DNA of 64,000 nucleotides from Escherichia coli (GTDB taxonomy: Bacteria > Pseudomonadota > Gammaproteobacteria > Enterobacterales > Enterobacteriaceae), in the NCBI RefSeq assembly GCF_045037415.1, contig NZ_CP173438.1; one strand, written 5' to 3'. Under the pieces are notes generated by a model, which was given only the letters and a program-made list of their open reading frames with translations, made no database searches and was not told where the DNA came from. Each line of letters begins with the position of its first letter. Position 1 is the first letter of the stretch. The position numbers were made by a program, and so were the translations under genes. Below are positions 38,319 through 39,950 of this stretch, in pieces.

Positions 38319-38350
38319 ATTGCCCCGGAGAAATCCGGGGCAATTTCAGT
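38319..38350. terminator. Hairpin between asnB and the convergent 145-aa ORF
   Basis: attgccccgga-gaaa-tccggggcaat. Confidence 0.55.
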
Positions 38351-38787
38351 TACTGGGGCGCTTGTTGATTCTGATATGCAGTAAGGAAATGTTCCGGGTT
38401 TGCCACATCGCTATTTGACAACTCATCACTGTAGGCCACCAACCAGGTCGCCTGCTCATCCGGAATATGCAGTCTGCCATTTCCCTCTTTCAGGCGTAAT
38501 AACTCAAAAGATTTGCCCTTAATTACGGCGGTATAGGATTTCTCACCTTCCTGTAATGCTTTCACTTTACAGCGAAATATCTGACCATCGATGTCATTAT
38601 CAACATGCGATACCTGAATGAGGGCTTCATTAGAAGCTTTCGGGCCTATCCGCATCATCCACACCACAGCGCCTTCCTGCCCACGATAGCCAAAAACATA
38701 TTTACCGATTTCCGGTTTAACCGTATCGGCGAACGCAGATTGCATAAGTAATAACGCACCCATCAACGCCGTCATAAAACGCAGCAT
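38350..38787 (-). CDS. Small secreted protein of unknown function
   Basis: 145 aa; ATG with RBS gaggg 6 nt upstream; signal peptide MLRFMTALMGALLLMQSAFA; I recall no gene here in K-12. Confidence 0.6.
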   Translation of the reverse strand: MLRFMTALMGALLLMQSAFADTVKPEIGKYVFGYRGQEGAVVWMMRIGPKASNEALIQVSHVDNDIDGQIFRCKVKALQEGEKSYTAVIKGKSFELLRLKEGNGRLHIPDEQATWLVAYSDELSNSDVANPEHFLTAYQNQQAPQ

Positions 38788-39050
38788 AGTATTCCCTCAA
38801 TAAATCGCCTGAAGTGGTAGCAGAGATGCAGGCGTAGCGATCCCTGCCCTGTCCTGTTGCAACGGGCCAGTATTTCATAGATTAATTTCCCACCACTATT
38901 GTTGAATTCCGAATTTCATCCTGTATGACAAAAGAATGGCTGTAGGGTGGGGAAAAAACACAAAGTAAACAATAATTGACGAATATAGCGCCATGCTGTT
39001 CGCAACCTAACCAAACAGTCACTTTCGAGCAATTTTCCTTGAAAAAGAGG

Positions 39051-39079
39051 TTGACGCTGCAAGGCTCTATACGCATAAT
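39051..39079 (+). promoter_or_regulatory. tRNA operon promoter (sigma70, stringent type)
   Basis: -35 ttgacg, 17-bp spacer, -10 cataat, GC-rich discriminator gcgcccc, AT-rich UP region upstream. Confidence 0.6.
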
Positions 39080-39120
39080 GCGCCCCGCAACGCCGATAAG
39101 GTATCGCGAAAAAAAAAGAT

Positions 39121-39197
39121 GGCTACGTAGCTCAGTTGGTTAGAGCACATCACTCATAATGATGGGGTCACAGGTTCGAATCCCGTCGTAGCCACCA
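39121..39197 (+). tRNA. metT: tRNA-Met (elongator, anticodon CAU)
   Basis: 77-nt cloverleaf ggctacgtagctcag...gtagccacca; anticodon loop ctCATaa; identical to the copy at 39515. Confidence 0.9.
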
Positions 39198-39207
39198 TCT
39201 TTTTTTT

Positions 39208-39292
39208 GCGGGAGTGGCGAAATTGGTAGACGCACCAGATTTAGGTTCTGGCGCCGCAAGGTGTGCGAGTTCAAGTCTCGCCTCCCGCACCA
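39208..39292 (+). tRNA. leuW: tRNA-Leu (anticodon UAG)
   Basis: 85 nt with long variable arm; gcgggag acceptor pairs with ctcccgc; ends CCA. Confidence 0.85.
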
Positions 39293-39315
39293 TTCACCAG
39301 AAAGCGTTGTACGGA

Positions 39316-39390
39316 TGGGGTATCGCCAAGCGGTAAGGCACCGGTTTTTGATACCGGCATTCCCTGGTTCGAATCCAGGTACCCCAGCCA
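39316..39390 (+). tRNA. glnU: tRNA-Gln (anticodon UUG)
   Basis: 75 nt tggggtatcgccaagcggtaagg...; anticodon loop contains ttTTGat; ends gCCA. Confidence 0.9.
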
Positions 39391-39424
39391 TATTCTTCGA
39401 GTAAGCGGTTCACCGCCCGGTTAT

Positions 39425-39499
39425 TGGGGTATCGCCAAGCGGTAAGGCACCGGTTTTTGATACCGGCATTCCCTGGTTCGAATCCAGGTACCCCAGCCA
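39425..39499 (+). tRNA. glnW: tRNA-Gln (anticodon UUG)
   Basis: Identical repeat of the tRNA at 39316. Confidence 0.9.
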
Positions 39500-39514
39500 T
39501 CGAAGAAACAATCT

Positions 39515-39591
39515 GGCTACGTAGCTCAGTTGGTTAGAGCACATCACTCATAATGATGGGGTCACAGGTTCGAATCCCGTCGTAGCCACCA
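39515..39591 (+). tRNA. metU: tRNA-Met (elongator, anticodon CAU)
   Basis: Identical to the tRNA at 39121. Confidence 0.9.
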
Positions 39592-39639
39592 AATTCTGAA
39601 TGTGTCGAATATGTTCGGCAAATTCAAAAACCAATTTGT

Positions 39640-39714
39640 TGGGGTATCGCCAAGCGGTAAGGCACCGGATTCTGATTCCGGCATTCCGAGGTTCGAATCC
39701 TCGTACCCCAGCCA
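39640..39714 (+). tRNA. glnV: tRNA-Gln (anticodon CUG)
   Basis: 75 nt; anticodon loop attCTGatt. Confidence 0.9.
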
Positions 39715-39751
39715 ATTTATTCAAGACGCTTACCTTGTAAGTGCACCCAGT

Positions 39752-39826
39752 TGGGGTATCGCCAAGCGGTAAGGCACCGGATTCTGATTCCGGCATTCCG
39801 AGGTTCGAATCCTCGTACCCCAGCCA
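39752..39826 (+). tRNA. glnX: tRNA-Gln (anticodon CUG)
   Basis: Identical to the tRNA at 39640. Confidence 0.9.
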
Positions 39827-39830
39827 CATT

Positions 39831-39863
39831 AAAAAAGCTCGCTTCGGCGAGCTTTTTGCTTTT
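39831..39863 (+). terminator. tRNA operon terminator
   Basis: agctcgc-ttcg-gcgagct followed by tttttgctttt. Confidence 0.65.
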
Positions 39864-39914
39864 CTGCGTATATTCAATGCCGAATACGATGTTGACTCGT
39901 CTTATCCTTACAAA

Positions 39915-39950
39915 GTCGGATGCGACGCTGCCGCGTCTTATCCGACCTAC
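39915..39950. repeat. REP element
   Basis: gtcggatgcgacgctgccgcgtcttatccgacctac. Confidence 0.5.

Follow-up and report, generated by a model that had tools for sequence, protein, structure and literature searches.

Does an array of seven tRNA genes in which three sequences occur twice, as exact copies, represent a recently rearranged region of an Escherichia coli chromosome or an ordinary operon, and have the repeats themselves been used by recombination? The question was raised by a locus embedded in the window (that is, the whole 64-kb stretch of DNA analyzed in this work), where the array lies next to a small gene that the sequence-only reading of this DNA had regarded as putatively inserted.

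Identity and Organization of the tRNA Array

Both ARAGORN and Rfam recognized seven tRNA genes on the + strand between positions 39121 and 39826, in the order Met-Leu(UAG)-Gln(UUG)-Gln(UUG)-Met-Gln(CUG)-Gln(CUG), and ARAGORN found no tRNA beyond these seven in the 64-kb window. The scores of all seven against RF00005 range from 57.6 to 71.1 bits, compared with a gathering score of 29 (E-values from 4e-11 to 7e-15), and every one of them is an exact string match in K-12 (NC_000913.3). The genes, each called by both programs, are the following:

39121-39197, + strand: metT, elongator tRNA-Met(CAU), equal to K-12 metT/metU (ARAGORN, Rfam)
39208-39292, + strand: leuW, tRNA-Leu(UAG), equal to K-12 leuW (ARAGORN, Rfam)
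39316-39390, + strand: glnU, tRNA-Gln(UUG) (ARAGORN, Rfam; K-12 string match)
39425-39499, + strand: glnW, tRNA-Gln(UUG), exact copy of glnU (ARAGORN, Rfam; K-12 string match)
39515-39591, + strand: metU, elongator tRNA-Met(CAU), exact copy of metT (ARAGORN, Rfam; K-12 string match)
39640-39714, + strand: glnV, tRNA-Gln(CUG) (ARAGORN, Rfam; K-12 string match)
39752-39826, + strand: glnX, tRNA-Gln(CUG), exact copy of glnV (ARAGORN, Rfam; K-12 string match)

A string comparison revealed that metT is identical to metU, glnU to glnW and glnV to glnX, the exact repeats extending over 78, 76 and 77 nt for the Met, Gln(UUG) and Gln(CUG) pairs, respectively; the Gln(UUG) and Gln(CUG) sequences are unlike at 7 of 75 positions. 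The gene order and the anticodons, as well as the exact duplication of tRNA-Met and of each tRNA-Gln, had already been proposed from the letters of the sequence, and both proposals were borne out by these analyses.

Since the seven tRNAs are identical to K-12 genes and share with them both the order and the neighbours asnB and ubiF, the locus is almost certainly the long-known E. coli metT tRNA operon. The location of the array between asnB and ubiF on the chromosome emerges both from the open reading frames of the window and from the annotation of an identical region (strain SA186) and of K-12 MG1655, where asnB, the seven tRNAs, ubiF and miaB are reported. A 2.4-kb region including the array shares 100% identity with many E. 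coli chromosomes and has matches in 5424 of the 5426 complete E. coli genomes. The classical suppressor alleles supE (glnV) and supB (glnU) belong to the metT operon. Historically, the operon went by the name supB-E (Nakajima, Ozeki and Shimura, 1981).

The window matches the K-12 metT operon in its gene order and tRNA sequences, in the promoter hexamers and discriminator at one end and the terminator at the other, and in having asnB and ubiF as flanking genes. The alignment from promoter to terminator disclosed only five differences, all of which fall in the leader or in the spacers: an additional A in the A-run of the leader, an additional T between metT and leuW, a single substitution between glnU and glnW, and, between metU and glnV, one substitution plus an additional A. 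The comparison of spacers with K-12, which had been suggested as a check, thus shows the locus to be a known one, represented here by an ordinary allele, in agreement with the earlier description of the array as a standard one. A further difference is located upstream, where the window retains a 145-aa open reading frame and K-12 is without most of it.

Regulatory Signals, Transcription and Processing

The signals flanking the tRNA genes are the following:

38990-39050, + strand: conserved stretch, about 60 bp long, preceding the -35 hexamer, nearly invariant in the cross-genus alignment
39051-39079, + strand: sigma-70 promoter (TTGACG, 17-nt spacer, CATAAT), 10 of 12 matches in a consensus scan
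39080-39120, + strand: GC-rich discriminator GCGCCCC and 5' leader, read directly and conserved across genera
39832-39867, + strand: Rho-independent terminator, AAAAAGCTCGC-TTCG-GCGAGCTTTTT followed by GCTTTTCTGC, found by scan and identical in K-12

The promoter motif and the GC discriminator that had been read from the letters were found at 39051-39079 and immediately downstream, and the interval 39051-39863 originally assigned to the operon spans from the -35 hexamer into the T-rich tail of the terminator. Both hexamers are unchanged across five aligned sequences, and the hexamers, the discriminator and the leader are invariant across E. coli, E. albertii, a Salmonella-labelled record and Pseudocitrobacter. 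The transcription start is predicted about 7 nt past CATAAT, near 39087, because the distance from this point to the 5' end of leuW (121 nt) fits the metT intermediate of approximately 125 nt, with an unprocessed 5' end, described in rnpA49 mutants (PMC2241853). If so, the leader would be about 34 nt long. The GC-rich discriminator, taken by itself, predicts that the metT promoter might be under stringent control (ppGpp/DksA).

The block at 38990-39050 is near-invariant in E. coli, K-12, E. albertii, the Salmonella-labelled record and Pseudocitrobacter, and the intergenic sequence further upstream and at the flanks diverges. We consider this block a candidate upstream activating region, which might include an A/T-rich UP-like stretch and possibly a Fis site. 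One degenerate match to the Fis consensus, not significant alone, does fall within it (38998-39012); the same degenerate pattern occurs 91 times in the window, that is, less often than in shuffled sequence, so that this match carries little weight. A search of the literature for Fis control of metT returned nothing specific.

At the other end of the operon, the terminator hairpin (39832-39857) consists of 11 pairs and is followed by a T-rich tail; its fold of -17.9 kcal/mol (z = -4.15) was not equalled in stability by any of 200 shuffles, in accordance with the strong terminator previously claimed. This hairpin is placed between an A-run and a T-run and, given these runs on its two sides, it might also end the convergent ubiF transcript. 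The interval that separates the tRNA terminator from the ubiF stop codon also contains a REP-like palindrome (GTCGGATGCGACGC / GCGTCTTATCCGAC) at 39915-39946, with a degenerate direct copy at 39875-39907.

As for expression, the motifs for a single promoter and a single terminator are present in the window, conserved and identical to those of K-12, and transcription itself is known from the K-12 literature. In that strain a full-length polycistronic transcript of the seven tRNAs exists, the Rho-independent terminator is removed by RNase E, which also separates the distal tRNAs, and RNase P cuts the mature 5' ends, separating the tRNAs, whose maturation is completed by 3' exonucleases (PMC2241853). 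The tRNAs, the promoter and the terminator of the window being identical to those of K-12, we carried this mechanism over to the locus under study. Hence, the single sigma-70 promoter would give rise to one transcript of about 780 nt ending at the Rho-independent terminator; RNase E would then remove the terminator and separate the last tRNAs, and RNase P would act at every mature 5' end, followed by the 3' exonucleases. The K-12 unit holds all the genes with the CAU(Met), UAG, UUG and CUG anticodons and is among those that could not be deleted in a systematic deletion study (PMC11480407). It represents the whole K-12 supply of elongator tRNA-Met, tRNA-Leu(UAG) and both tRNA-Gln species and, as their sole source, it is essential.

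The Adjacent Small Gene

Upstream of the operon lies the small gene that had been suspected to be an insertion:

38350-38787, - strand: small gene, 145-codon open reading frame whose product bears a Sec-type signal peptide

The search of its 145-aa product against Pfam gave no match at E <= 1. The 431 bp at window positions 38439-38869 are missing from K-12, and a copy of GGCCA stands at either edge of the gap. Besides most of the gene, the deletion takes away 78 bp ahead of it, some 250 bp away from the metT promoter. By means of a query spanning the deleted segment, the intact segment was found in 985 of the 5426 complete E. coli genomes, at one place per genome; a count at 80% coverage of the 2.4-kb query is unusable for small-gene carriage, as the K-12-type deletion amounts to only 18% of that query. 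The window, like SA186, 81009 and other strains with which it is identical, retains the gene.

Taken alone, the absence of the gene from K-12 and its presence in only those 985 genomes would fit the idea that the tRNA locus, or part of it plus the small gene, was horizontally acquired or rearranged in the source strain. However, we regard this scenario as extremely improbable for three reasons. First, E. albertii, Pseudocitrobacter and the Salmonella-labelled record all have the arrangement ubiF-tRNA operon-small gene-asnB-nagD, and in these three fetched loci 99-100% of the length of the query protein could be aligned, with an identity of 69-90%. Second, K-12, 536, MC1061 and TUM2805 share one common deletion junction (TGTAGGCCA joined to GTATTTCATAG), and all four retain the final 89 nt at the 3' end of the gene. 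Third, the spacers of the tRNA operon differ from those of K-12 by single bases only.

The distribution of the protein is in agreement with this. Orthologues covering the whole query length, with 88-90% identity, are harbored by E. albertii, E. marmotae, E. ruysiae and other Escherichia clades, and remoter ones (65-71% identity) by Pseudocitrobacter, Superficieibacter and other Enterobacteriaceae. The putatively inserted gene is therefore not an insertion: E. albertii, Pseudocitrobacter and other Enterobacteriaceae have full-length orthologues in the corresponding position. The small gene, being syntenic in other genera, is ancestral, and it was lost in most E. coli, K-12 included, through a microhomology deletion. 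We also considered whether the 431-bp segment could be a mobile insertion accompanied by a 5-bp target duplication; this was rejected on account of the syntenic orthologues in other genera and of the single copy per genome.

Recombination Between the Repeats

The sequence-only reading had also pointed to the identical repeats as a substrate for recombination. To look for its products, synthetic recombinant-junction queries were compared with the 5426 complete E. coli genomes. With the default E-value cut-off, recombinants and normal loci could not be told apart, two overlapping normal pieces being joined into one place covered at 100%; strict E-value limits, which can be passed only by a single full-length alignment, were thus adopted. 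The junctions retrieved are the following:

Single Gln(UUG) junction: 71 of 5426 genomes
Single Gln(CUG) junction: 139 of 5426 genomes, including EPEC E2348/69 (two records)
Three or more Gln(UUG): 35 of 5426 genomes
Three or more Gln(CUG): 27 of 5426 genomes, among them a K-12 derivative carrying several additional copies
Met-Met-mediated duplication: 10 of 5426 genomes
Met-Met deletion: 8 of 5426 genomes
glnW x glnV crossover (Gln(UUG)/Gln(CUG) hybrid): 1 of 5426 genomes

These categories overlap and the counts are not additive, so that the genomes with a non-canonical array number between 139 and 291 (2.6-5.4%) of the 5426. Recombinant junctions are thus present in complete E. coli genomes, which supports the earlier suggestion at the population level. 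TUM2805, for instance, carries a Met-Met duplication, its array reading (Met-Leu-Gln)x3-Met-Gln. Unequal homologous recombination between the identical repeats of 75-77 nt generates arrays with fewer or more copies in a few percent of the strains. With regard to published copy-number variation of the metT operon, our survey of the literature retrieved nothing specific.

An obvious objection is that the copy-number variants might be assembly artefacts, the repeats representing a hazard for assemblers rather than an active substrate in nature. Indeed, the eight complete assemblies with the Met-Met deletion, including those of E. coli 536 (NC_008253.1, L003) and MC1061 (NZ_CP195014.1, L004), show only Met-Gln(CUG)-Gln(CUG) or Met-Gln(CUG) downstream of the promoter, without leuW, glnU and glnW, and a leuW-glnU segment is found nowhere in 16 of the 5426 genomes, even though the sole tRNA-Leu(UAG) and tRNA-Gln(UUG) genes of K-12 reside in this unit, which resisted deletion (PMC11480407). 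As leuW, glnU and glnW are expected to be indispensable, the simplest reading of these eight cases is that they are likely assembly collapses, and some of the Gln-pair collapses may have the same origin. As an account of the variants as a whole, however, we consider the artefact explanation rather unlikely: an assembly collapse cannot produce expansions, yet triplications occur in 35 (Gln(UUG)) and 27 (Gln(CUG)) genomes; the (Met-Leu-Gln)x3 array was found in strains of several laboratories and sources; two different records of E2348/69 both carry a single Gln(CUG); and the hybrid of AH21B066 exhibits a clean crossover within the first 29 nt shared by the two Gln sequences, which resulted in Met-Leu-Gln(UUG)-Gln(CUG)-Gln(CUG) and kept all four tRNA species.

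Recombination between the repeats is, therefore, the reading that we favor. A bolder version of it, according to which the Met-Met deletion is real in some strains (e.g., 536 or the sequenced MC1061 isolate) or, more modestly, the copy-number alleles (about 3-5% of genomes) reflect an adaptive tuning of Gln/Met/Leu tRNA dosage instead of neutral noise, seems to us very unlikely. If the Met-Met deletion were true, it would imply either an unrecognised mode of CAA/CUA decoding or extra gene copies that have gone unnoticed elsewhere.

Exact tandem duplicates are also found in other polycistronic stable-RNA units of E. coli, e.g., glyV-glyX-glyY, argQ-argZ-argY-argV-serV and lysT-valT-lysW-valZ-lysY-lysZ-lysQ, and in these operons, too, the copy number can be changed by unequal recombination; tandem gly tRNA arrays have been noted previously (PMC4539685). 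Unlike them, the metT operon has a nested duplication, in which the Met...Met repeat surrounds one Gln pair and a second Gln pair follows, and embeds every gene for four anticodons in a single unit, which limits the deletions that can be survived.

Age and Concerted Evolution of the Duplications

The loci of the relatives, which were fetched via the neighbouring small protein, exhibit the same seven-gene order in E. albertii, in Pseudocitrobacter cyperus and in the Salmonella enterica-labelled record, with exact pairs in each of them. Since this order is common to other genera, the duplications are old and predate these genera. In Pseudocitrobacter cyperus, glnX and glnV (L007, 1947-2132) share five substitutions with respect to E. 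coli, at positions 25, 27, 30, 38 and 41, that is, in the anticodon arm and adjacent positions, and the spacers diverged over the same period. That the five changes are common to both copies while the spacers diverged indicates that the tandem tRNA copies evolve in concert, an argument built on one outgroup and five shared changes. Both selection and homogenisation keep the copies identical.

Two further observations concern the loci of the relatives. In E. albertii the leuW-glnU spacer (L006, 2396-2499) measures 104 nt, versus 23 nt, and the extra 81 nt start with TGGGGCATATCCAGGCTGTAAG, which resembles the 5' end of a tRNA-Gln; this extra stretch may be a decayed third Gln copy. In the two Salmonella enterica-labelled records (L008 and L009) the tRNA spacers hardly differ from their E. 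coli counterparts, a resemblance closer than expected for Salmonella intergenic DNA, and in view of it the species name attached to these third-party assemblies may be unreliable.

Significance

The metT locus is already known and represents textbook material. This operon supplies all the elongator tRNA-Met, tRNA-Leu(UAG) and tRNA-Gln of E. coli. The repeats are probably behind assembly collapses, and caution is thus advisable when tRNA genes are counted from assemblies. The neighbouring small gene is an ancestral one, lost from most E. coli, and it should not be handled as an island or an insertion. Lastly, the repeats generate copy-number alleles of the operon in the E. coli population, laboratory strains included, an issue which matters for studies on tRNA dosage.
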